A DNA stretch of 64,000 nt from an uncultured Actinomycetes bacterium (GTDB lineage: Bacteria > Actinomycetota > Thermoleophilia > RBG-16-64-13): assembly GCA_963841735.1 (NCBI GenBank), contig CAWJDT010000004.1:352001-416000 (forward strand). The letters are read 5' to 3'. Below the pieces are notes generated by a model. That model saw nothing but the letters and a program-made list of their open reading frames with translations, made no database searches and was not told where the DNA came from. Positions 1 through 13,709 of this stretch are shown here, piece after piece (position 1 is the stretch's first letter; every line of letters starts with the position of its first letter). The position numbers and the translations under genes were made by a program.

Positions 1-264
1 GCCCTGGTCAGACCGATGCCGGCCAGCAGCTCGGTCAAGAGCCGCCCGGCCCTGACCCACGAAAGGCTCGCCCTGTTTGTCCTCATGAAATCCAGGGGCC
101 TCACCCACAAACATCAGTTCCGTCTCCGGGCTACCCACCCCAAAGACCACTTGGGTCCGCCCCCCGCACAGCCCACAGTCTGAGCACTCGCGGAGCGATT
201 CGCCCAGAGCAGCCAGTGCCTCCGCGGCGGTTGCGGTCCCTGCTGATGTCACCTCGGGATTCAT
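1..264 (-). CDS. Uracil-DNA glycosylase family 4, N-terminal part (runs off the window; one frameshift near nt 50)
   Basis: Manual translation MNPEVTS...CSDCGLCGGRTQVVFGVGSPETELMFVGEAPGFHEDKQGEPFVG shows the CxxC Fe-S ligands and the GEAPG motif; absent from the ORF track. Confidence 0.9.
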   Translation of the reverse strand, partial: MNPEVTSAGTATAAEALAALGESLRECSDCGLCGGRTQVVFGVGSPETELMFVGEAPGFHEDKQGEPFVGQGRAALDRAAGRHRSDQG

Positions 265-530
265 GCCCACAGGGTAGCAGAAGACCCGCTCAGCGGGTTT
301 GCCGGCCGTTGCCGACGCACACGCGGGCTGTTATCCTACCGACGCGCCGCGTGGTGGATCTCTGACTCCTGCCAGCGCCCAGAACGCCTACCCGACGGAG
401 GCAAAGCCTGGGCCCCCGGATTGTCCCCCCATCGGCTCAGAGATAACTCCGGCCACGTCTGGTATCTGCGGGCAGAACTGGAACAGGCAGGTATTTCATC
501 GATACTGGAAGCACAGGCCTCCGCTTCGCG

Positions 531-1438
531 GTGATCGGCGCGGGACGCGTCGGCGCCAGTCATGGCGCTCGCCCTCCAAGCCCGGGGGGCCAGTCTCGTC
601 GGATTCACCGTCCACTCCCCGGCCGGCGGCGCTCGCGCCCTGGCCTGGCTCGGCACACCGGCTTCGTCGCAAATCGCCGATATCGTCGCCCTCTGCGCCT
701 GAGGTCTACTTCCTTACCGTTCCCGACCAGGCGCTGCCCGAAGTAGCTGAAGAACTCGGCAGCTGCTTGACGGCTCCTGCCGTGGTAGCCCACACCAGCG
801 GAGCCACCTCGGTGGATGTGCTGCGTCCCTGCGCCGAGGCCGGGGCCGCCACGCTGGTCTTCCACCCCCTGCAGACCTTCAGCGACCCCTTGAGCGGCTG
901 CAAGCGATTCGCCGGCGCCGCGGTGGCCATAACCCCTTCTTCGCCTGATGAGCGGCGTACCGCCGAAGAATTCGGCTTCGCCCTGGCCCGCGCTACTTGG
1001 CGCTGACCCCTTCCTGCTCCCCGACGACCGCGCACCCTCTACCACTCGGCGGCCACACTGGCCTGCAACTACCTGGTTACGCTCGAGCACCACGCCCAAC
1101 GCCTCTTCACACTGGCCGGCCTCCCCGCCGATGAGGCGCTCTCCCTGTTCCTCCCCCTGGTCAAGTCCACCCTCTGCAACGTGGAGACCCAGGGCACGGT
1201 CGCCGCCCTCACCGGACCACTCAGCCGCGGAGACGCGCCCACTATCGCCGGTCATCTCGCGGCCCTGGCGGCAGACGCCCCGGACGTGCTTCCTCTATAC
1301 AGGGCGCTGGGCATCGCGACGCTTGACCTGGTCAAGGCCAGGGGAGAACTAGAACCGGCAGCGCTCGACCGACTCAGGCTCCTGCTTGAACACCCCCCCG
1401 CCGCGACCCAGCCGCCTGAGGCAAATCCCGCCCTCTAA
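531..1438 (+). CDS. Rossmann-like/DUF2520 oxidoreductase (PanG-like ketopantoate reductase), frameshifted; start uncertain
   Basis: IGAGRVG, LTVPD, HTSGA, FHPLQTF and ALTGPLSRGD motifs spread over several frames; panC nearby. Confidence 0.8.
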
Positions 1439-1540
1439 TCCCGAAACGAGTCTCAAGGACTATGATTGCCCGCAGCGACTACGACCCACACCGACCGAGC
1501 CAAGCGGCCCGCCTGGGCCCGCGATAGAGAGGATCGCAGC

Positions 1541-2005
1541 ATGACGTCAGCATCTCGGACCACCGGCATCGCCACCGTGGTGACCGACCGTATACACTTC
1601 GACAGCAAGGGCAACGCCGACATGGTCAACCTCACCGCCGACGTGCGCCGTATCGTCACCGAGTCGGGACTCGCCGCCGGGGCCGTGACCGTCTTCTTCC
1701 CAGGAGCTACGGGAGCGGTCACCACGCTCGAGTTCGAGCCGGGAGTAGTGCAAGACTTTGCCAATCTCTTCGATCGGATAATCTCGCCGCAAGAACATTA
1801 CGAGCACAACGTCACTCACCCGGACGTAAACGGCCATGCCCACGTGCGGGCCGGCCTGCTGGGGCCCTCGCTGGTCTTCCCCGTCGAGAACGGCGAGCTG
1901 TGCCTGGGCAAGTGGCAGGAGATCTGTTTCGTCTGCTTCGACAACCGTCCCCGAGAACGCACCGTCATCGTCCAGATAACCGGCGTTGCCAAACAGGACT
2001 CCTAA
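1541..2005 (+). CDS. yjbQ: YjbQ/UPF0047 family protein
   Basis: TTLEFEPG, YEHN, NGHAHVRAGLLG, LGKWQ motifs. Confidence 0.85.
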   Translation: MTSASRTTGIATVVTDRIHFDSKGNADMVNLTADVRRIVTESGLAAGAVTVFFPGATGAVTTLEFEPGVVQDFANLFDRIISPQEHYEHNVTHPDVNGHAHVRAGLLGPSLVFPVENGELCLGKWQEICFVCFDNRPRERTVIVQITGVAKQDS

Positions 2006-2038
2006 GAAGGTCCGCTATCTCCCCAGGAGGACGTCCTC

Positions 2039-3327
2039 ATGAAACCGGTAATTCAGCTGGCCCTTGACTTCGTCGATCTTCCCCGCGCCATCCAGGTAGC
2101 CGAGGAAGCGGTCGCCGGCGGCGCCGACTGGCTGGAAGCCGGCACTCCCCTGATCAAGAGCGAGGGGCTCGAAGCCATCAGGGCACTCCGCGCCCACTGG
2201 CCCGATCGGGTCATCGTGGCCGACATGAAGACCATGGACGCCGGACGCGCCGAGGTGGAGTGCGCAGCCAAGGCGGGCGCTCGGGTGGTCGGCGTGCTGG
2301 GCGCGGCTTCCGACGCCACCATCAAGGAGTGCATCGAGGCGGCCCGCAACTACGGCGCCGAGATCGTGGTGGACATGATCCAGGTGGCCGACGTGGTCGC
2401 TCGCGCCAAGGAAGTCGAGGCGATGGGCGCCAACTACGTGGGCATCCACCTGGCCATCGACGAGCAGATGCAGGGCAAGACCCCGTGGGACACGCTGCGA
2501 GCGGTAGCCAAGGCCGTGTCCATACCCATCGCGGTGGCGGGCGGCATCAACTCCGAGACGGCCCCTCTGGCCTTGGAGGCTGGAGCCTCCATCGTCGTGG
2601 TGGGAGGCGCCATCACCAAGGCGGTCGACGCCACTGCCGCCACCCAGGCCGTGAAGCAGGCCATGGAGACCGGCGTCGCCGTCAAGTCGGAGTTCTTCGT
2701 GCGCGCCACCGGCCCCGACATCCGCGAGATGCTCACCCGGGTCTCCGCCGCCAACGTCTCCGACGCCCTGCATCGCAGCGGCGACATCCCCGGCATGCGT
2801 CCCCTGGCCCCCGGGACCAAGATGGTAGGTCCGGCCCTGACGGTGCGCACCGGGCCCGGGCGACTGGGCCAAGCCGGTGGAGGCCATCGACAAGGCTCAG
2901 CCCGGCGACGTGCTGGTGATCGACGTGGGCAACGTCCTCCCGGCCGTCTGGGGCGAGCTGGCCACCAACTCCGCCATCCAGAGAGGTCTGGCCGGCGTGG
3001 TCATCTACGGAGCCGCCCGCGACACCGGCGACATCCGCGCCCTCGGCTTCCCGCTGTTCTGCACGCTCATCACCCCCACCGCCGGTGAGGCCAAGGGCTT
3101 CGGCGAGATCGGACGTGCCCATCCGCATCGCCGGCGTCAACATCTCGCCCGGCGACTGGATCATCGGCGACGACGACGGCGTGTGCGTCATCCCCAAAGA
3201 GAAGGCCGTGGAGTACACCAACCGGGCCATGGACGTGCTCGAGAAGGAGAACCGTCTGCGGGCCGAGATCCAGGCCGGCAGCACGCTCAGCCAGGTGGGC
3301 TACCTGTCGCGCTGGGAGAAGAAGTAA
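2039..3327 (+). CDS. 3-hexulose-6-phosphate synthase fused to an RraA/MenG-like domain, frameshifted near 2860 and 3110
   Basis: IQLALD, LEAGTPLI, ADMKTMDAG, AVAGGIN, followed by NVSDAL, AVWGEL, GAARD, GDDDGV. Confidence 0.88.
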
Positions 3328-3374
3328 GGCGAGGCTAGACTCCGAGACCGCGCCGACGCTCGGCCGGGGCATTC

Positions 3375-3950
3375 ATGTCGCTCTTTCGCTGGACCGCTCC
3401 ACTGTTCAAACTGCGCTTCCCGGCGCTGGTCGGAGGATGACTTGCGCACCACTCGCCGAATGGCTTCGCCCCTACGTGGCCACCGGCGGCATCTTCGCCG
3501 ACCTGGGTGGCGGCACCGGAGATCTCGGGGCCGGCTTGGCGCGCGAGCTTGCGGCCCGGGTGATCATCGTCGACCTGTACCCCTCAGATGCTCCGCCGAG
3601 TCGACGCAGATCCCTTGGTCTCGGTGCGCCTGGCGTCGGCTGACGCGCTGCCCTTCGCGGACGCATGCTTCGACGCCGTGCTCTGCTGTGACTGCTTTCA
3701 TCACTTCCGCGACCAGGACGCTGCCGCCCGCGAGATAGCCCGGGTGGTCAGGCCGGGTGGCGGCGTGGTCATCATGGACATGGAAGGCGTGAAGAACCTG
3801 GTGCGACTCGAGCGTCTCCTGGGTGAACCGGGCGCGTTCATGACGGCGACCGCCATGGAGAGTTTCATGAGCGTCCGTGGCATCACGGGCACCGCGACCC
3901 GGCAGGGGACCGGCAGCGGCTACGTGTTCGTGGGGTCGGTGACCGACTGA
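3375..3950 (+). CDS. Class I SAM-dependent methyltransferase, frameshifted
   Basis: DLGGGTG, LPFADACFD, RVVRPGG motifs. Confidence 0.8.
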
Positions 3951-4831: not shown

Positions 4832-5796
4832 CGGCTCATGTCCCCGACGGCCGGCACTCCAGCCACGCTCGTCGCCAGCCGGACAGCCCGCCTGATACTC
4901 ACCGCCACGGCTTCGGCAGCCGCCGCCCCCACTTGGAACACGTTGGTGGCCCTTTCGCCGGTGGCCAAGACGAACACGCAGTCGCCGTCCACCGGGGTGT
5001 GCACAGGGTCGATCGCCCGCGCCATGCCGTCGTGGCTCATGCGCGCGACCATGCCGCACTGCAGTTTGTCCAGCCGGGCGTCGGTCATGACCACCGACAG
5101 CGTCGTGCTTTCGAGTGCGCTGAAATCAGGCGCGCAGGCCAGGCTCAGCAGCAGGTCCTTGCCCCCCGCGAAGCACCCATCTCTCCGCACACCGGCCAGT
5201 GTGGCCCCCTTCTCGTCTAGAACGTCGCCTAGAGCATTCACGACCGTCAAGGCAGTAACCGTGACCCGCCCTCCGTTAGCATCCTCCGGACCCACGCACA
5301 CTGTCGCAAGACCGATGCCCCCCTTCATCATGCCCGCCGCGCCGCACATCTTGCCTACGGTCGCCCCGAGACCGGCCCCCACCGACCCTTCCTCCACCCG
5401 CACTCCCGCCGAGGCAGCGGCCTGATACGCATCATCCGGCCGGGGGAACGCGGCAGCGCTACCCACACCCAAGTCGTAGATCACAGCGGCAGACACAAGG
5501 GGAATGCGCGCATAGGGAGTCCGATAGCCGTGGCCACCCTCGCGGAGAAAGGTCGACACACCCGCGGCCGCTCCTAGGCCCGGCGCGCTGCCCCCGGTCA
5601 ACATGACCGCGTGCAACTCACCCACCGACGCGTACGGAGAAAGAAGAGCCGTCTCCAGGGTCCCCGGCGCACCGCCGCGAATGTCCACCGACGCGGTGAC
5701 TCCCTGGGGCGCAAGCACCACGGTGCACCCGGTGAGTCCCTCCCAGTCAGAGTAGTGCCCGACCGTGAGGCCCACGATGGTGATGTCGGCCGTCAT
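4828..5796 (-). CDS. P1/S58 family peptidase (DmpA-like)
   Basis: TGCTV, RGGAPGT, LTGGS, VNALGD, PVHTPVDGD motifs. Confidence 0.9.
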   Translation of the reverse strand: MTADITIVGLTVGHYSDWEGLTGCTVVLAPQGVTASVDIRGGAPGTLETALLSPYASVGELHAVMLTGGSAPGLGAAAGVSTFLREGGHGYRTPYARIPLVSAAVIYDLGVGSAAAFPRPDDAYQAAASAGVRVEEGSVGAGLGATVGKMCGAAGMMKGGIGLATVCVGPEDANGGRVTVTALTVVNALGDVLDEKGATLAGVRRDGCFAGGKDLLLSLACAPDFSALESTTLSVVMTDARLDKLQCGMVARMSHDGMARAIDPVHTPVDGDCVFVLATGERATNVFQVGAAAAEAVAVSIRRAVRLATSVAGVPAVGDMSR

Positions 5797-5814
5797 AGCC
5801 CCCGGCTCCCGTGC

Positions 5815-7065
5815 CTACCGGGAGTTCTTGCGCATCTGATCAAGAAACTCAGAGTTGGATTTCGTCTCTTTGAGCTTGCCGATCAGCAATTCGATGGCAG
5901 CATTCGGATCGAGCGCGTGCAGCACGGCCCTCAGCTTCCACACCATCGCGGCTTCGGCCGGCTCCATCAGAAGCTCTTCTTTTCGAGTGCCCGAGTTCTC
6001 GATGTCGATAGCCGGGAATATGCGCTTGTTGGCCAGTTGCCTGGTGAGCCGCACCTCCCAGTTGCCCGTGCCCTTGAACTCCTCGAAGATGACCTCGTCC
6101 ATCCGCGAACCGGTCTCCACCAGAGCGGTGGCCAGGATGGTCAGCGATCCGCCTTCTTCGATGTTGCGGGCCGCGCCGAAGAACTTCTTGGGAGGATACA
6201 GGGCCGTCGAGTCCACGCCGCCCGACAGGATGCGGCCGCTCGCCGGAGCCTGCAGGTTGTAGGCCCGGGCCATACGAGTGATGGAGTCGAGGAGCACGAC
6301 CACGTCCTTGCCCACCTCGACCAGCCGCTTGACCCGCTCCAGCACCAGCTCGGTCACCTGCACGTGGTTCTCGCCGGGCATGTCGAAGGTCGAGCTGACC
6401 ACCTCGCCGTTCACCGTGCGCTCCATGTCGGTGACCTCTTCGGGCCGCTCGTCCACCAAGAGCACCATCAGGTGCACTTCTGGGTTGTTGGCGGCGATGG
6501 CGTGAGCGATGTCCTTGAGGATGGTGGTCTTGCCCGCCTTGGGCGGCGACACGATCAGACCCCTCTGCCCCTTGCCCAGCGGGCTCATAATGTCCATCAC
6601 CCGGGCGGAGAGGTTATCCGGGGTAGTCTCAAGACGCAGCCGCTCGTCGGGGAACAGGGGCGTCAGCGAATCGAAGGTGGGGCGATGACGGGCCTGCTCG
6701 GGATCCATGTCGTTGACGGTCTGGATCTTCAGGAGCGCGTGGTACTTCTCGTTGTCGCGCGGGGTACGGACCTGACCGTTGATCTCGTCGCCTCTGCGCA
6801 ACTTGAAGCGCCGGATCTGCGACAGCGATACATAGATGTCGGAGTCCGACTGGGTGTAGCCTTGAGTGCGCAGAAAACCGTAGCCGTCGGGCAGGATGTC
6901 CAGCAGTCCCGTCCGCAGATGAAGCCCCCGGTCCTGCGACTGCTCGTTCAGGATCTTCATGATGAGATCCTGCTTGGAGTACTTGCGGAAGTTCTTGATG
7001 CCCAACTCGCCCGCGACGAGGTGCAGGTCGGACAGGAGTTTGGGCTCCAGTTCAGCTATCGCCAT
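5815..7065 (-). CDS. rho: Transcription termination factor Rho
   Basis: DGYGFLR, GKGQRGLIVSPPKAGKT, DERPEEVTD, EEFKGTGN, SGTRKEELL. Confidence 0.99.
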   Translation of the reverse strand: MAIAELEPKLLSDLHLVAGELGIKNFRKYSKQDLIMKILNEQSQDRGLHLRTGLLDILPDGYGFLRTQGYTQSDSDIYVSLSQIRRFKLRRGDEINGQVRTPRDNEKYHALLKIQTVNDMDPEQARHRPTFDSLTPLFPDERLRLETTPDNLSARVMDIMSPLGKGQRGLIVSPPKAGKTTILKDIAHAIAANNPEVHLMVLLVDERPEEVTDMERTVNGEVVSSTFDMPGENHVQVTELVLERVKRLVEVGKDVVVLLDSITRMARAYNLQAPASGRILSGGVDSTALYPPKKFFGAARNIEEGGSLTILATALVETGSRMDEVIFEEFKGTGNWEVRLTRQLANKRIFPAIDIENSGTRKEELLMEPAEAAMVWKLRAVLHALDPNAAIELLIGKLKETKSNSEFLDQMRKNSR

Positions 7066-7153
7066 GATCTTCCTCTTCGAACAGTTGTCATGCCCCTACC
7101 TCTTCTTCCCTGATTGCCAGTGTCGGTTGAATAACGGCCCATCGGCATTCTGG

Positions 7154-8185
7154 TCATCTAACCCCCAGACCCACCTGTGGACCCTCGTTGTCAGACCTGT
7201 GTATCGTCATGATCTTGCGTACCGCGTGACAGGCCGAGCACGCAATGAGAGTCTCGGTGCGAGTACCATCGGGGTCAAAAGCGACCGCCTTGAGGAACCT
7301 GCCGGCGGTTACCGCAGTAGCCACCATGATAACCCCTTCTCCCACAAGATCGCGAGTGGTAAGTCTCGCCTCGATGTCTTCGATCCCGGCCGCCCTCGCC
7401 AATTCGACCTGGTGCCGCGAAACCGGCCAGAACCGCGCCTGTATCTCTCCACCCAAGCAACGCAGAGCAGCCGCCGTCGTGATGCCCTCAGTCGATCCCC
7501 CGATGCCTATGTACATGTCCACACCCGCGTCGCCCGTGGCCGCGGCCAAGCTGGCAGACACATCCCCGTCGAGTATGAGCCTCACCCGCGCCCCCGCCAG
7601 CCGGATCTGCTCCACCAATTCCTCGTGACGAGGCCGGTCGAGCACTACCACCACGATGTCCGCCGGCTTCCGGCCCAGAGCAGCCGCCAGCGCCTTGACG
7701 TTCTTCTCCACCGGCGCGTCCAGGTCCACCGCATAGGCCGCCTCGCGGGGAACGACGAGCTTCTGCATGTACATTTCCGGTACCGGCATCAGGCTACCCG
7801 CCGGCCCCACCGCCAGCGTTGTCATAGCCCCGTCGACACCGCGCGCTAGGGAGCTGGGAGCCTGCAATGGGTCGAGTGCCAGATCCCAGGGCTCCGGGTC
7901 GGCCGTCAAGCCTTCAGAACCCGAACGGCTCGAGAACCACGGCCCCTTAGGATCGCCCACTTCTTCGCCAACGCTCAGAGCGTGCGGACCCGAGCCCCCC
8001 CTACGCCCGGCGACCACGCGGCCACGAATGAGCAACCTGCTCAGCTCTGCTGCCATCGCCTCCCGCGCCGCCGTATCAGCGGCAAGTCCGTCGCCCCTGC
8101 CCAGCCACTGCGCGGCCGCGAGAGCGGCACCCTCAGTGACTACAGTGAATCGTTGGCAGATGCATCGCCCCTCACTCGTGGCCAC
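7154..8185 (-). CDS. glpX: Class II fructose-1,6-bisphosphatase (GlpX) homolog with altered catalytic motifs
   Basis: VTEGAALAAA, GRGD, YMQKL, LDRPRH, DGDV, GIGGSTEG present; GEGE and DPxEGT motifs changed. Confidence 0.85.
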   Translation of the reverse strand: MATSEGRCICQRFTVVTEGAALAAAQWLGRGDGLAADTAAREAMAAELSRLLIRGRVVAGRRGGSGPHALSVGEEVGDPKGPWFSSRSGSEGLTADPEPWDLALDPLQAPSSLARGVDGAMTTLAVGPAGSLMPVPEMYMQKLVVPREAAYAVDLDAPVEKNVKALAAALGRKPADIVVVVLDRPRHEELVEQIRLAGARVRLILDGDVSASLAAATGDAGVDMYIGIGGSTEGITTAAALRCLGGEIQARFWPVSRHQVELARAAGIEDIEARLTTRDLVGEGVIMVATAVTAGRFLKAVAFDPDGTRTETLIACSACHAVRKIMTIHRSDNEGPQVGLGVR

Positions 8186-9182
8186 CGGTCACCTCCTCGC
8201 CGCGCTCGATGACGTCGTACAGAGCGTCGACCACCAGGCCCACCGTGTCGTCTATGCTCACATTGTCTACAACCAGCGTGCCCTCTGCCGCGGCCCGCCC
8301 AAGGATGAAATCCTGCACCTTGCGTATCTCCTCGAACTGCTCCAGATATCTGGCTATCGCCCTGCGGCCCGACGTCTGCTGCTCCCTGACCAGGAAGTGG
8401 CTGCGATGAAGTTTTGCGTCTCGCACCGCGACTACCATGGACAACAACTGGATCTCCCCCATACGCTCCCTGGCCCCCGTAACCGCCAGCATCCCGGGGA
8501 CCAGGTGCACCCCTTCCACCACTATGCTGGTGCGCTCCTCTATGGCCCTGTCGAGCACGGCGAGCAAACCCACATTTACCATGTCCACCTGCTGCATGAA
8601 GCCCACCAGATCCGGGTCCAGGTCGGCCCCCAAAGGGATCCGCACTCCCTTCCCCGCCTCATACGACGAGTAGTGGATCGCCGGCAGCAGGCTCTCCGAG
8701 AAGAAGGCCCTCATGACCTGTCGTATGGCGTCGGTCGAGATGATACGCACGATACCCAACCGGTCGGCCACTTTGGCGGCGATGGTGCTCTTGCCCACCC
8801 CGGTCGCTCCCCCGATCAGTACCACCACCGGATTGTCCTCCCCGGCCATCCGGTTCCACAGCTGGTAGCGACGCAAATAGCGCTCGCCCTCCACTTCGGC
8901 GAGCACGACCTCCACCATCGAACGCAGATCGTCGAGATGCACCTCCCGGTCGGCCCTCTGGAGCAACTCGCGCTCGACGTCCATGGCGACAGCGAATGCC
9001 CGTTCTGGAGCCAATCCCGTCGCGGTGAGGGTGGTCGCCAGAAGCCCCTTCGAGAAGGGGACCTTGTGCCCTTCGCTGACCAGTTGCACGGGAAAGCCTT
9101 CCGACGGTGCGGTCTGCATGCGCCGCTCCCCTGCCTTCTCTGAGCCGCTCACCGATTCATGCCTGGCTTTCGAACCGCTCAC
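8172..9182 (-). CDS. pgk2: 2-phosphoglycerate kinase (ATP-cone plus P-loop)
   Basis: PFSKGLLA ATP-cone, GGATGVGKST, STDAIRQVMR, VEGVHLVP; adjacent to cpgS. Confidence 0.88.
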   Translation of the reverse strand: MSGSKARHESVSGSEKAGERRMQTAPSEGFPVQLVSEGHKVPFSKGLLATTLTATGLAPERAFAVAMDVERELLQRADREVHLDDLRSMVEVVLAEVEGERYLRRYQLWNRMAGEDNPVVVLIGGATGVGKSTIAAKVADRLGIVRIISTDAIRQVMRAFFSESLLPAIHYSSYEAGKGVRIPLGADLDPDLVGFMQQVDMVNVGLLAVLDRAIEERTSIVVEGVHLVPGMLAVTGARERMGEIQLLSMVVAVRDAKLHRSHFLVREQQTSGRRAIARYLEQFEEIRKVQDFILGRAAAEGTLVVDNVSIDDTVGLVVDALYDVIERGEEVTGGHE

Positions 9183-10545
9183 TCGCCATCGCCGCCAACT
9201 CCTTCGTCAACTCCGCCAGTCGACCCCGGCGAGCTGGATACACCTCGACGGGAACGTTGTCCACCGCAACAATCGGAAGGCCTCGCGCCTCCGCCTCTTC
9301 GGCCACTACGTCGATAGCCGCCGCCTTTATCTCGCTCAACACTATCTCCACATTGCTCATCCGCTCCCCTGCCAAATCGGCCTTCAGGGCCATCCGATCG
9401 GCGAGGTTGGTGGATACCAGTTCCACCTTGCAGCCCCACTCCTCTTCCAAGTGCCCCCGCAGCACGCCCTTCTGCGCCTCCGGCGCAGTGGTGAACAAGG
9501 CGACCCGCCGGCCCTCCACGGCTGAGACCGGGTGGGGCCTCAGGACCACCGGCACTATCTCCATGCCGGGCCTGACCTCACTCACCGCGTCCATAACGGC
9601 CTTGACCTTCTCCCTCGTGGCCGCAGGCTCCTCCGCCATCGTCAGCGCCACCGCGTCGCTGATAAGAAGCCTATACCTCCCCAGATAGCCCGTCAGGTGC
9701 TCAAGGGGCTGACCCGCCCCTGCCACCAGAACGCACACATCACTCGCGGCCGGAGGGATAGCGGCCCCGCTTCCCTCAAGCAAGATCAGACCAGGACGCA
9801 GGCTGTTCGCCAATTCGATCCCATCCGCCACATTGGAGACGAAGGGACTACCCGCCATGCCTCCCCCGCACCGCCGGCAACCGATCGTCTTCACCCGGCT
9901 GAGAACCGCATCCTCAAAGTGATCGGAAGCCGCATGGCGCCCCTGTCTGCTCCACTTGAGCAGATCGGCAATCGTCAGCAGACCGCTTCCTCCATCGATG
10001 ACCTCCGGGACGGCCGGACCGCCACGACCCATGGCCACAATCACAACGCCGGGACTCCCGCCCCGTCCGATCACGACTTCTTGAAGGACCCGCGCCATGT
10101 AACCGCTTATCGCCGTCTTGCCCACTCGCTTGCCGGTACCTATGACCGAAAACGATGGACTTGTGCAAAGGCGCTTACAACTCGCGGGGCTGAAGTGAAA
10201 ATCGGAACCTGAGTAGCCTACGTTTCGCGCGAGGGTCTCGCTGATAAGGCGGAAACGCTGCTCGTATCCTAACACCGGTTCATCACTCAGGTCAACGACC
10301 ACCTCCGGCCGGTACTCCTCGAGCAGACGAGCAAGGCCTCGCGTCCAGTCCTCGTCGAACACAACCGGTAGACCGTAGAGCGCCCCGGCTTCGCTCTCGA
10401 GTCGCTCGCTCCTTATCTTCTCGGTGCCTCCGAGAAATAGAGCAGCGCGAAAATCAAACCGCTCTGCGGCCTGGCGCAGAGCATCCGCCACCACCTCCGG
10501 GTAGTGCTCACCATCGATCAGAGCTACCGCCGCCGGCCTAATCAC
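9157..10545 (-). CDS. cpgS: Cyclic 2,3-diphosphoglycerate synthetase
   Basis: ALIDGEHYP, GGTEK, DLSDEPV, GTGKRVGKTA, AMGRGGP, HAASDHFED, GCRRCGGG, EIKAAAID. Confidence 0.95.
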   Translation of the reverse strand: MIRPAAVALIDGEHYPEVVADALRQAAERFDFRAALFLGGTEKIRSERLESEAGALYGLPVVFDEDWTRGLARLLEEYRPEVVVDLSDEPVLGYEQRFRLISETLARNVGYSGSDFHFSPASCKRLCTSPSFSVIGTGKRVGKTAISGYMARVLQEVVIGRGGSPGVVIVAMGRGGPAVPEVIDGGSGLLTIADLLKWSRQGRHAASDHFEDAVLSRVKTIGCRRCGGGMAGSPFVSNVADGIELANSLRPGLILLEGSGAAIPPAASDVCVLVAGAGQPLEHLTGYLGRYRLLISDAVALTMAEEPAATREKVKAVMDAVSEVRPGMEIVPVVLRPHPVSAVEGRRVALFTTAPEAQKGVLRGHLEEEWGCKVELVSTNLADRMALKADLAGERMSNVEIVLSEIKAAAIDVVAEEAEARGLPIVAVDNVPVEVYPARRGRLAELTKELAAMASERFESQA

Positions 10546-11291
10546 ATCGCGTCGAACTCCACGATGTCCTCGCCCCCGTGGAACGGATAGCGCCTGGAGA
10601 TCTTCGCATGGTCACCCTGTATCTCGATCACGTTGTAGCAGGGTTTCGTGTCGCCCCGCAGGCGTAGCGTCGCCACGGTGCCCGCATTCACAATGTACAT
10701 GTTCTCTAACCGCCAGGCATAGGGCACGTGCTTGTGCCCTGAGAGCACCAGGTGCACCCCGCACTCCACCAGGACCTCCAGAACATCGCCGGCGTCGTTC
10801 ACGATGTTGCGTTCGCGCCCAGTACCGGGGATGGGCAGCAGATGGTGGTGCAGCAGGAAGATCTTGAAAGCATCCGGATCCTGCGTGAACGCCTCTTTGA
10901 TCATGGGATAGCGGTGCCTGCCTATGCGCCCATTGTCCAGGTCGGGCTCGGTGGAGTCCACCCCAACTAGTGTGACTCCGTTCTTACGAATCACCATCTC
11001 CCTTGTAGCGAAGAGCCTCTCAAAGTGCGCGTAGCCGACGTTCCGGCTGTCGTGATTACCGGGCACCACGAGTACATCGGGACAGGTCAACCGGTCTAGG
11101 TATTCCCTGGCTTCGCGGAATTCCTGGCGATAACCCATGGTGGTGAGGTCGCCCGTCACCACCACCACATCGGGAGCGAGGTCGTTCACCTCCACCAGGG
11201 CGCGGTCGAGCAGATTGGGCACGAAGTACTGCGACCCCGTGTGAAGGTCAGAGAGGTGCGCTATCACGCACGAACGACTTGCTCTGTCCAT
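10542..11291 (-). CDS. Calcineurin-like metallophosphoesterase (CpdA/Icc type)
   Basis: SDLH, TGD, PGNHD, HH, SGHKH metal-binding motifs. Confidence 0.93.
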   Translation of the reverse strand: MDRASRSCVIAHLSDLHTGSQYFVPNLLDRALVEVNDLAPDVVVVTGDLTTMGYRQEFREAREYLDRLTCPDVLVVPGNHDSRNVGYAHFERLFATREMVIRKNGVTLVGVDSTEPDLDNGRIGRHRYPMIKEAFTQDPDAFKIFLLHHHLLPIPGTGRERNIVNDAGDVLEVLVECGVHLVLSGHKHVPYAWRLENMYIVNAGTVATLRLRGDTKPCYNVIEIQGDHAKISRRYPFHGGEDIVEFDAM

Positions 11292-11365
11292 ATAGGCTTC
11301 CTCCGCCCGCCGGTCAGACTGGGGCTCGAGCCGACTTGGTGGAAAGGACTGCTACGATGCGCCCT

Positions 11366-12430
11366 CTACGTGGTGGCTATGAGATCCTCCACGGCCGCCA
11401 AGTCCGCGCGACAACGCTTGATGGGAGGAGACTGCTCTATGGCTGTCTGCGGATCTTTGAGTCCATGACCGGTGATTACCGCCACCAGCGTGTCTCCAAA
11501 CGGGAGTCCGGCATCCCGGTACTTCAATACCCCGGCGATACCGGCCGCGGAAGCAGGCTCGCAGAAGACGCCCTCTTTCTGAGCCAACAACCGCTGAGCT
11601 GCCAGAATCTCGTCGTCAGTAACATCACGGATGACGCCCCCCGAGTCGCGCGCCGCCGCCAAGGCTTCTTCACCCCGAGCGGGCTTACCTATGCGGATGG
11701 CCGTAGCCACTGTCTCTGGGAACTCCACGGTCTCGCCCCGCACCAGTGGGTTGGCGCCCTCAGCTTGAAAGCCCCACACCACTGGCAGCCGCGAAGACTT
11801 GCCCAACTCATGGTATTCGCGAAAACCCTTCCAGTAGGAGGTGATGTTGCCGGCGTTACCCACTGGGATAGTCAGCATGGCCGGCGCGTCGCCCAAGACG
11901 TCCACGATTTCAAACGCTCCCGTCTTCTGTCCCTCGATGCGATACGGGTTGAGTGAATTCACCAGCGTGATGGGCTGCCGTTCCGCGATCTCCTTGACGT
12001 AGTCAAGCGCCAGATCGAAGTTGCCTTCGATCGCGATGGCCACCGCCCCGTGCAGTAGCGCTTGCGACAGCTTACCCATGGCGATCTTGCCCTCGGGGAT
12101 AAGTACCACGCAACGCAGACCCGCGCGCGCCGCGTAGGCCGCAGCCGACGCGGAGGTGTTGCCTGTGGAAGCGCAGATGACCGCCGTGGCGCCATCTTCC
12201 ACCGCTTTGGTGATTGCCATGGTCATCCCCCGGTCTTTGAACGAACCGGTGGGATTCAGCCCCTCATACTTCAAGAACACTCGGCAACCCAACTCGGCGC
12301 TTAGCCACTCCGCGGGGATGAGCGGAGTGTCGCCCTCACCCAGCGTCACCGCGACCGTCTCCGCTTTCAGCGGCAGGTAGGGCCGATAGCGCTCGATCAA
12401 CCCAAAGGGCTTGCGCTCTTGGTCGGCCAC
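11366..12430 (-). CDS. thrC: Threonine synthase
   Basis: [31 protein letters not shown]. Confidence 0.97.
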
Positions 12431-12431
12431 C

Positions 12432-13709
12432 TTATAGCACCCTCAGCGTCAGGGGCTCGTTCCGGCAGCACATCAGGTTCTTCATCTGCTCGATAGCATC
12501 GAAGAAGTTCCGTTCTTTGGTGGGGTGGGTGATCAGCACCAGTTCGGCCTCGTCTCCTCTACCCTTCTGGATCATACTGGCGATCGACACGCCTAGACCA
12601 CCGAACACAGCCGCGATCTGGGCAAGAACGCCCGCGCGGTCGATGACGTTCATCTTGATGAAGAAGGCCGACTCCACCTGTTCCGAGGGAAACAGCTCTA
12701 GGCTGCGATAGCAGGAGCAGCTCTGCAGAAAGCCGACGTCCTTGGTGTTGGCGATCGACACTATGTCACTCACCACAGCGGTGGCAGTCGGCGCGCCGCC
12801 GGCGCCCGGGCCCATGAGCATGATCTCGCCTATGGCACTCCCCCGCAGGAAGACGGCGTTGTTAGAGCCGCTGATAGCAGCCAGTGGGTGGTCTTTAGGC
12901 AGTAGAGCCGGGAACACCCGCACGCTCACCTTGCCGTCGATGAGCCGCGCCGCGCCTATCAGTTTGACCACGAAACCGAAATCCTTGGCGTAACGCACAT
13001 CGTCCAAGGTGATGTCCTGGATGCCCGAGAAGGCGACATTACCCAACGTCACTCGCGAGTGGAAGGCGATAGAGGCGAGAATAGCCATTTTGGCGGCAGC
13101 GTCCGCCCCTCCCACGTCGGCGGTGGGGTCTGCCTCTGCGTAGCCCAGCTCCTGGGCTTTGGCCAGGATCTCGGGGTAGTCGCCCTCTTCGTTGTACATC
13201 CGAGTGAGGATGTAGTTGGTGGTGCCGTTGACAATGCCGTACACCGTGTGGAGCTCGGCGGCGATCATGCTCTCGCGCATCACCTTGATTATGGGGATAG
13301 CTCCGGCCACCGACGCCTCGAAGCGCAGATGCCGTCGCTGATCACGCGCCAGAGTGAACAGCGCCTCTCCTTTGGAGGCAAGCAGCTGCTTGTTGGCGGT
13401 GACCACGTTCTTGCCCTTGCGCATGGCCGCGTCGATGAAGGTGAAGGCGGCACCGGTGCCACCGATGACCTCCACGATGATCTCGATGGTCGGATCGTCC
13501 ACGATCTCCGCGAAATCATCCGTGAAGAGCCCGGCCGGTGCATCGGACGGCATTTTCCTAGCGTCGATCTCCAGGACCTTGGCCACCTGCAGATCGACCC
13601 CCGTGCCCTCCAGGATGCTGTCGTGCTCTTTCTGGATGAGCTGGTAGACGCTCGCCCCGATAGTGCCGAATCCCAAGAGTCCTATGCGTACGATCCTATC
13701 CCTATCCAT
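12432..13709 (-). CDS. hom: Homoserine dehydrogenase with C-terminal ACT domain
   Basis: [31 protein letters not shown]. Confidence 0.97.

Follow-up and report, generated by a model that had tools for sequence, protein, structure and literature searches.

The 64,000-nucleotide window analyzed here (forward-strand positions 352,001 to 416,000 of contig CAWJDT010000004.1, assembly GCA_963841735.1) belongs to an uncultured Actinomycetes bacterium of the Thermoleophilia. A minus-strand block of four open reading frames (ORFs), at window positions 7154-11291, combines predicted genes for the synthesis of cyclic 2,3-diphosphoglycerate (cDPG) with a metallophosphoesterase (MPE) that is a good candidate for a phosphohydrolase of cDPG or of 2,3-diphosphoglycerate (2,3-DPG). 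The block is flanked by lysA-hom-thrC upstream and by rho downstream. The assembly is 2.8 Mb in size with a completeness of 89.7%, and its closest named relatives are metagenome-assembled genomes of Thermoleophilia and Gaiellales. The features of the locus, in the direction of transcription, are as follows.

11366-12430, minus strand: thrC, the upstream flank (lysA-hom-thrC); TIGR00260, 311.5 bits.
11299-11304, minus strand: ribosome-binding site GGAGGA, 7 nt ahead of the MPE ATG.
10542-11291, minus strand: MPE, 249 aa, opening the block; Pfam PF00149 (Metallophos), 63.7 bits, and PF12850, 51.1 bits.
9157-10545, minus strand: CpgS, 462 aa; PDB 8ORK/8ORU, E 1.8e-108, residues 7-459.
8172-9182, minus strand: 2PGK-like P-loop kinase, 336 aa; N-terminal ATP-cone (PF03477, 31 bits) plus P-loop.
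7154-8185, minus strand: GlpX-like protein, 343 aa; PF03320, 323.9 bits.
5815-7065, minus strand: rho, the downstream flank; TIGR00767, 661.6 bits.

A sequence-only reading of this DNA had described four overlapping genes upstream of rho. The identities that it gave to the MPE, CpgS, 2PGK-like and GlpX-like proteins are borne out by Pfam, NCBIfam and PDB matches, and the four ORFs, their order and two of the overlaps stand. The MPE stop codon and the GTG start of cpgS share 4 nt (GTGA), a solid overlap, and the 2PGK and glpX-like reading frames share 14 nt. The remaining overlap, 26 nt between cpgS and 2PGK, holds only if 2PGK starts at its first GTG (9182), and it may be an artefact of choosing the longest ORF. 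Alternative starts lie at GTG 9152, which leaves a 4-nt gap to cpgS, and at ATG 9119, which is preceded by AGGGGAG and leaves a 37-nt gap; a better ribosome-binding site precedes one of these two later start codons. Spacers of 74 nt (thrC-MPE) and 88 nt (glpX-rho) set the block off from its flanks. A scan of the block region for promoter-like sites (3 versus 2.2 expected) and terminator-like sites (3 versus 5.0 expected) gave no signal, and an Rfam scan of positions 5500-13000 returned no matches at E values up to 0.1.

No family in the Pfam or NCBIfam scans matched the CpgS ORF. The protein nevertheless aligns over its full length (residues 7-459 of 462, E 1.8e-108) with the solved enzyme of Methanothermus fervidus (8ORK), in which 2,3-DPG, ADP and Mg are bound by E45, K46, K145, R146, K149, T150, D208, E305, P335, T353, E404 and K406, according to the part of the structural report available (PMC10690619). 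When these residues were transferred by eye through a HMMER alignment of the window protein to 8ORK, all twelve were found to be kept, as E42, K43, K139, R140, K143, T144, D208, E305, P337, T353, E405 and K407. Nor does any of the twelve vary in an alignment of ten CpgS proteins from actinobacteria, whose identities go down to 47%. The Walker A motif GxxGxGK[T/S] is present, with G136, T137, K139, R140, G142, K143 and T144 invariant in the same alignment. Because of the full-length match and the twelve invariant ligand residues, the most economical reading is that the window CpgS would run the same reaction as the M. fervidus enzyme.

The neighboring kinase is most similar to 2-phosphoglycerate kinase models, although below their curated cut-offs: it scores 284.3 bits against PRK04220 (2-phosphoglycerate kinase; cut-off 343) and 284.3 bits against PRK12337 (cut-off 603). 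No solved relative of it was found. Similarity and its position beside cpgS suggest a member of the 2PGK family, one that is not certified as an equivalog. These sub-threshold scores leave room for the idea that the bacterial CpgS and 2PGK-like enzymes make a product other than cDPG, for which the MPE would perform a biosynthetic trimming step. The 2PGK family does have further substrates, NCBIfam PRK12339 being a mevalonate-3-phosphate 5-kinase, and no report of cDPG in bacteria was found in the literature searched, which did not extend to subscription journals. However, the residues that bind 2,3-DPG, ADP and Mg are invariant, 12 of 12, across the bacterial CpgS alignment, and we consider a different product quite improbable.

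The arrangement of the block recurs beyond this genome. Identical gene order, with the MPE directly upstream of cpgS, was found in 15 of 16 cpgS-bearing loci of relatives and is thus not attributable to chance. Among the fetched loci, those of the window's own family show the order lysA-hom-(thrC)-MPE-cpgS-2PGK-glpX-rho and those of the remaining families of the class the order MPE-cpgS-2PGK; rho comes after the block in most Actinomycetota loci. Whole or fragmented cpgS is carried by 26 of 41 relatives, 25 of which have an MPE orthologue immediately upstream. The exception is the relative G024 (L008, 1151-6981), where the upstream slot is taken by a glutamate dehydrogenase-type gene and two PPDK_N (PEP-utilising, ATP-binding) genes.

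At the species level, a scan of one genome per species gave 580 stretches with a CpgS relative, the best 80 of which were analyzed. Of these 80 loci, 61 have the MPE immediately upstream of cpgS, among them 56 of the 58 labelled Actinomycetota. The 19 loci that differ are from Methanobacteriota (10), Bacillota-labelled entries (4, two of them with less than 800 nt of upstream DNA), Fidelibacterota (1), Actinomycetota (2) and two unlabelled entries, both with 2PGK upstream of cpgS instead. In Rubrobacteraceae the MPE still stands beside cpgS, and the 2PGK homologue was found elsewhere in all five genomes searched. A quick maximum-likelihood tree of 61 rows places the linked MPEs in one group (SH-aLRT 83) that branches in line with taxonomy; unlinked bacterial copies form its sister group (SH-aLRT 89), and archaeal homologues fall outside both. 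The window MPE belongs to the cpgS-linked clade of this distinct subfamily. Three loci labelled 'uncultured archaeon' or 'Eubacteriales' (L037, L067 and L070) show the actinobacterial lysA-hom-thrC ... cpgS-2PGK-rho order, and the MPEs of L037 and L067 cluster with Actinomycetota in the tree; the labels of all three are probably wrong.

The two genes also keep company at the level of whole genomes. Within 401 sampled Actinomycetota genomes, CpgS (E up to 1e-30) was found in 227 and the MPE subfamily (E up to 1e-50) in 226; both were present in 222, CpgS only in 5, MPE only in 4 and neither in 170. Both therefore occur in 222 of the 231 genomes that have either gene. Several of the exceptions fall at contig ends (G402, G421 and G231). 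When 14 unpublished genomes are set aside, the corresponding counts are 209, 4, 4 and 170. The module is old and widespread in Actinomycetota, with CpgS in 227 of the 401 genomes and its genes already named in databases, and is not peculiar to one bacterium.

Adjacency of this kind could be historical only, if a phosphoesterase of unrelated function had come to stand next to cpgS early in actinobacterial history and was then carried along. The linked clade does track taxonomy, so that most cases of adjacency could go back to a single early event, and the linkage is absent in archaea. Against this, the MPE-cpgS pairing has outlasted rearrangements that displaced 2PGK, and only 4 of the 174 cpgS-free genomes in the 401-genome sample have a member of the MPE subfamily. 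Additionally, in the actinobacterial family f9 the MPE-subfamily gene is located away from cpgS and still accompanies it (25 of 26 genomes have it, with CpgS in 26 of 26), which makes this family a partly independent case of co-occurrence. A merely inherited neighborhood seems to us very unlikely. The unlinked f9 paralogue (L116-L118) adjoins ORFs whose N-termini resemble acyltransferase and glycerol-3-phosphate dehydrogenase, a likeness judged by eye only. The neighbors of unlinked paralogues were considered as a functional clue and set aside as uninformative (rhodanese, integrase, P-type ATPase).

The MPE itself has the full calcineurin-like motif set for binding two metals (DxH, GD, GNH(D/E), H and GHxH) and passes the Pfam cut-off. 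Its metal motifs, D15-x-H17, G47-D48, G78-N79-H80-D81, H148-H150 and G185-H186-x-H188, are fully or almost fully conserved in an alignment of 56 sequences, which has 32 invariant columns even with paralogues and archaeal homologues included. Beyond these, the subfamily has Arg/Lys-rich motifs of its own (HHHLLPxPGTGRERN, DSxEPDLDxGxxGR and GTxxxxRLRG), and the conserved basic residues of its loop motifs (R83, R125, R159, R161, K187, R210 and R212) would suit a small polyanion as ligand. No membrane segment is apparent, the highest 19-residue Kyte-Doolittle mean being 1.31, although the protein might bind a membrane peripherally. An AlphaFold (AF2) model with a pLDDT of 93 gave its best Foldseek matches to GpdQ (3D03, E 1.5e-16) and Rv0805 (E 4e-16), at 18-22% identity, followed by Lmo2642 and purple acid phosphatases, with the whole set at 13-22%. 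GpdQ and the Rv0805/CpdA class are also the best PDB sequence matches. These fold matches assign the MPE to its superfamily and are silent on its substrate.

At all distances sampled, the MPE has evolved more slowly than the other three proteins of the block. Within the genus its identity is 84-92%, compared with 61-72% for CpgS, 68-76% for 2PGK and 55-68% for the GlpX-like protein, and its conservation exceeds that of Hom and ThrC and comes near that of Rho. Conservation above that of the accompanying enzymes is what might be expected of a protein with many contacts and, together with the translational coupling through the GTGA overlap, would fit a non-degradative role: the MPE would then be bound to CpgS as a stoichiometric partner or as its regulator, in a complex that the GlpX-like protein might join. 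The fact that the catalytic metal ligands are all invariant argues instead for an enzyme, and unlinked paralogues and archaeal homologues share the invariant residues without being coupled to cpgS. In another non-degradative version, the MPE would hydrolyze a signalling nucleotide (cAMP or a 2',3'-cNMP) that controls the module, as the names of its relatives (Icc/CpdA) and the presence of Rv0805 among the top fold matches could suggest. These names are generic in the source annotation, however, and the MPE reaches no NCBIfam equivalog cut-off, scoring 42 bits against the 225 required for CpdA (NF008359). A non-degradative MPE, of either kind, is in our view unlikely.

The fourth gene encodes a GlpX-like protein that passes the PF03320 family cut-off and fails the TIGR00330 equivalog cut-off (220 versus 259.3 bits); its match to PDB 3roj has an E value of 1.8e-56. 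Class II fructose-1,6-bisphosphatases (FBPases) have ten catalytic-site residues, including an essential threonine (Thr90 in Escherichia coli, Thr84 in Mycobacterium tuberculosis), and the M. tuberculosis T84A mutant is inactive, as stated in the available portion of the study (PMC5892879). Seven of the ten are kept in the window protein. The E. coli residues Glu57, Glu88 and catalytic Thr90 are replaced by Arg, Gln and Pro, which changes the motif GEGE to GRRG and DPxEGT to DPLQAP. Because the threonine and two acidic residues are lost, the protein is unlikely to be a working class II FBPase. No second PF03320 member and no PF00316 or PF01950 member was found in a search of the genome, at its 89.7% completeness.

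This degeneration is characteristic of the cluster. Among 32 cluster-linked copies (the window's included, with one copy poorly aligned and one partial), just 1 retains the catalytic threonine, which is missing from 30 of the 31 other than the window's; various residues stand in its place (P, H, R, A, L, I, Q or V), and the GEGE metal motif is usually absent as well. In contrast, all four unlinked GlpX proteins examined from the same class (L151-L154) keep the threonine, GEGE and DPLEGT and score 399-473 bits, compared with 323.5 for the window protein. The linked protein thus appears to be a catalytically degenerate paralogue that stays intact from class to class. Its role is probably one of binding or scaffolding, with a changed activity as the alternative, and it would represent a newly noticed, apparently dead-enzyme partner in the cDPG module. 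Copies from Rubrobacteraceae have an Arg/Lys-rich insert where GEGE would be. The gene alters the picture drawn in the sequence-only reading: since the GlpX-like protein lacks catalytic residues, it would not obviously complete a cycle.

Our preferred reading, to which we assign a probability of roughly 0.4, is that the block is the Actinomycetota form of a cDPG module in which the MPE opens the cDPG ring to give 2,3-DPG. Judging from homology and the conserved ligand residues, the 2PGK-like kinase would convert 2-phosphoglycerate to 2,3-DPG, and CpgS would close this to cDPG at the expense of ATP. The MPE, presumably on the same message as cpgS and translationally coupled to it, would be a soluble two-metal phosphohydrolase, and linkage, co-occurrence and chemistry point to the cyclic pyrophosphate of cDPG as the bond that it would open, with 2,3-DPG as the product. 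Cleavage of phosphoanhydrides is known for metallophosphoesterases such as LpxH, ApaH and ADP-ribose pyrophosphatase. Carbon and phosphate would then return to central metabolism once the MPE activity is released, for instance at low phosphate. For the GlpX-like protein, an accessory role, either non-catalytic or re-purposed, is more probable than that of a fructose bisphosphatase. Turnover of cDPG or 2,3-DPG by the MPE is the best available reading, and its basis is context rather than chemistry.

The MPE could also be a phosphomonoesterase for 2,3-DPG or for the 2-pyrophospho intermediate, draining or policing the precursor pool and so setting the amount of cDPG. The linkage and co-occurrence fit such an enzyme equally well, and purple acid phosphatases, which are monoesterases, are among the fold matches. 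Furthermore, with the GlpX-like protein degenerate, another enzyme must dephosphorylate 2,3-DPG if the pathway is reversible. However, the MPE pairs most tightly with cpgS and not with 2PGK, the maker of 2,3-DPG, as the Rubrobacteraceae show, and its closest folds are those of diesterases. We regard the monoesterase as a rather unlikely alternative.

Several observations weigh against ring opening by the MPE. The first concern chemistry and physiology. The nearest solved folds, the diesterases GpdQ and Rv0805, share only 18-22% identity with the MPE and are silent on its substrate; a synthetase translated together with its hydrolase would waste ATP in a futile cycle if the hydrolase were not restrained; and the archaeal cDPG hydrolase activity is a membrane-bound one, sensitive to K+ and phosphate, in the accessible part of one source (PMC1224877), while the MPE lacks a hydrophobic segment. 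The absence of bacterial cDPG reports in the literature searched counts here too, and cDPG is called exclusive to archaeal methanogens in the available text of one source (PMC10690619). Others concern the distribution of the genes. The 2x2 table of the phylum profile overstates the support, because adjacent genes are gained or lost jointly and related genomes are not independent. Family f9 has cpgS-2PGK without an adjacent MPE in five of five loci, and one Bacillota locus (L055) has cpgS without a linked MPE.

The archaeal data belong with these objections. The MPE homologue of Methanobacteriota adjoins cpgS in none of 10 loci, and in nine Methanobacteria-type loci neither MPE nor 2PGK adjoins it. 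Genomes of cpgS-bearing archaea do hold an unlinked homologue with 42-52% identity, and across 151 Methanobacteriota genomes CpgS was found in 140 and the homologue in 138 (both in 132, CpgS only in 8, MPE only in 6 and neither in 5). This co-occurrence is loose, in a sample for which genome completeness is not given. The DNA up to some 5 kb from the homologue is free of cpgS, 2PGK and pst genes in all 20 Methanobacteriota loci inspected. The sequence-only reading had counted a lack of conserved linkage to cpgS against its proposal; the linkage holds in Actinomycetota (56 of 58 labelled loci, with both genes in 222 of 231 genomes) and fails in archaea and in family f9. In Methanolliviera (L100, G044, 3-3645) two genes for PstS-like binding proteins flank the MPE homologue, and genes for a permease and an AbrB/MazE-type regulator stand beside it, in what looks like a phosphate-uptake operon. 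A phosphate-uptake context was rejected as a general clue to the MPE, since pst is absent near the homologue in the 20 other Methanobacteriota loci.

The block is dispensable within the genus. Four same-genus genomes (L122-L125: G013, G001, G012 and G002) have rho and lack the MPE, cpgS, 2PGK and the GlpX-like gene, with hom and rho only about 330 nt apart. Because pieces of CpgS (residues 83-159 and 82-120) and of the GlpX-like protein (residues 290-335) survive as short remnants in the hom-rho spacers, the block was deleted in these genomes, together with thrC. The usual actinobacterial order is lysA-hom-thrC-thrB-rho, and the cDPG block occupies the position of thrB, for which no match (TIGR00191) was found in the genome. 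The block was considered as a replacement for thrB. This was rejected, as an apgM-type 'proposed homoserine kinase' (TIGR02535, 444.1 bits versus a cut-off of 446.3) is a candidate for that function on another contig (G000:C7:10634-11806, L106).

What emerges is an orphan-enzyme candidate that can be tested rather than a new system, as databases already name the genes for cDPG synthesis. The literature consulted associates cDPG, as a solute, with hyperthermophilic methanogens; no gene tied to cDPG hydrolase was found in the literature searched, again outside subscription journals, in agreement with the sequence-only reading. More than half of the 401 sampled actinobacterial genomes carry the synthesis genes, nearly always with one particular phosphoesterase, and this pairing supplies a single, easily expressed candidate for the orphan activity. 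A test is practical because the substrate can now be made enzymatically, according to the available part of a recent report (PMC12136491). A degenerate GlpX paralogue is the second, unexpected component of the module. The finding also raises the question of what role cDPG plays in soil and gut bacteria. More broadly, cDPG might serve many non-thermophilic Actinomycetota, with no role in protection from heat, as a regulated phosphate and energy buffer that CpgS charges and the co-translated MPE, as the long-sought hydrolase, discharges when phosphate falls, with the dead GlpX as sensor or scaffold and the unlinked MPE homologues doing the same job in methanogens; this wider picture we regard as speculative and, on balance, doubtful.

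Comparable logic is known from operons of the ppk-ppx type, in which the synthase of a phosphate store is encoded with its hydrolase. What the block would share with them is a phosphoanhydride store made and broken by co-encoded enzymes; the chemistry and the protein families differ, and the parallel is an analogy only. The class II FBPase GlpX of E. coli and M. tuberculosis has the Pfam family, the fold and 7 of 10 catalytic residues in common with the GlpX-like protein, and it keeps the catalytic Thr, Glu57 and Glu88 where the window protein has Pro, Arg and Gln (PMC5892879, as far as its text was available). GpdQ and the class III phosphodiesterases Rv0805 and CpdA share the two-metal calcineurin-like fold and the ligand motifs with the MPE. 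They are only 18-22% identical to it, and the motifs of the MPE subfamily have no matching residues in the GpdQ alignment. Closer in function may be the cDPG hydrolase activity of Methanothermobacter thermautotrophicus, reportedly described by Sastry et al. in 1992. The reaction proposed for the MPE, cDPG to 2,3-DPG, would be the same, and 138 of the 151 Methanobacteriota genomes sampled have an MPE homologue; the archaeal activity is membrane-bound and inhibited by K+ and phosphate, at least in the accessible text (PMC1224877), whereas the MPE and its archaeal homologues are proteins of about 250 aa, with no membrane segment in that of the window. The closest parallel for the synthesis genes is the cDPG pathway of M. 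fervidus (2PGK and CpgS; 8ORK/8ORU), with which the window shares a full-length CpgS, its ligand residues and an adjacent 2PGK-family kinase with an ATP-cone, as judged from the available part of the structural report (PMC10690619). M. fervidus is a hyperthermophilic methanogen, whereas the window's host is a bacterium from environmental metagenomes. In this bacterium the synthesis genes and the MPE form one block, unlike in Methanobacteriota, where neither the MPE nor 2PGK is adjacent to cpgS.

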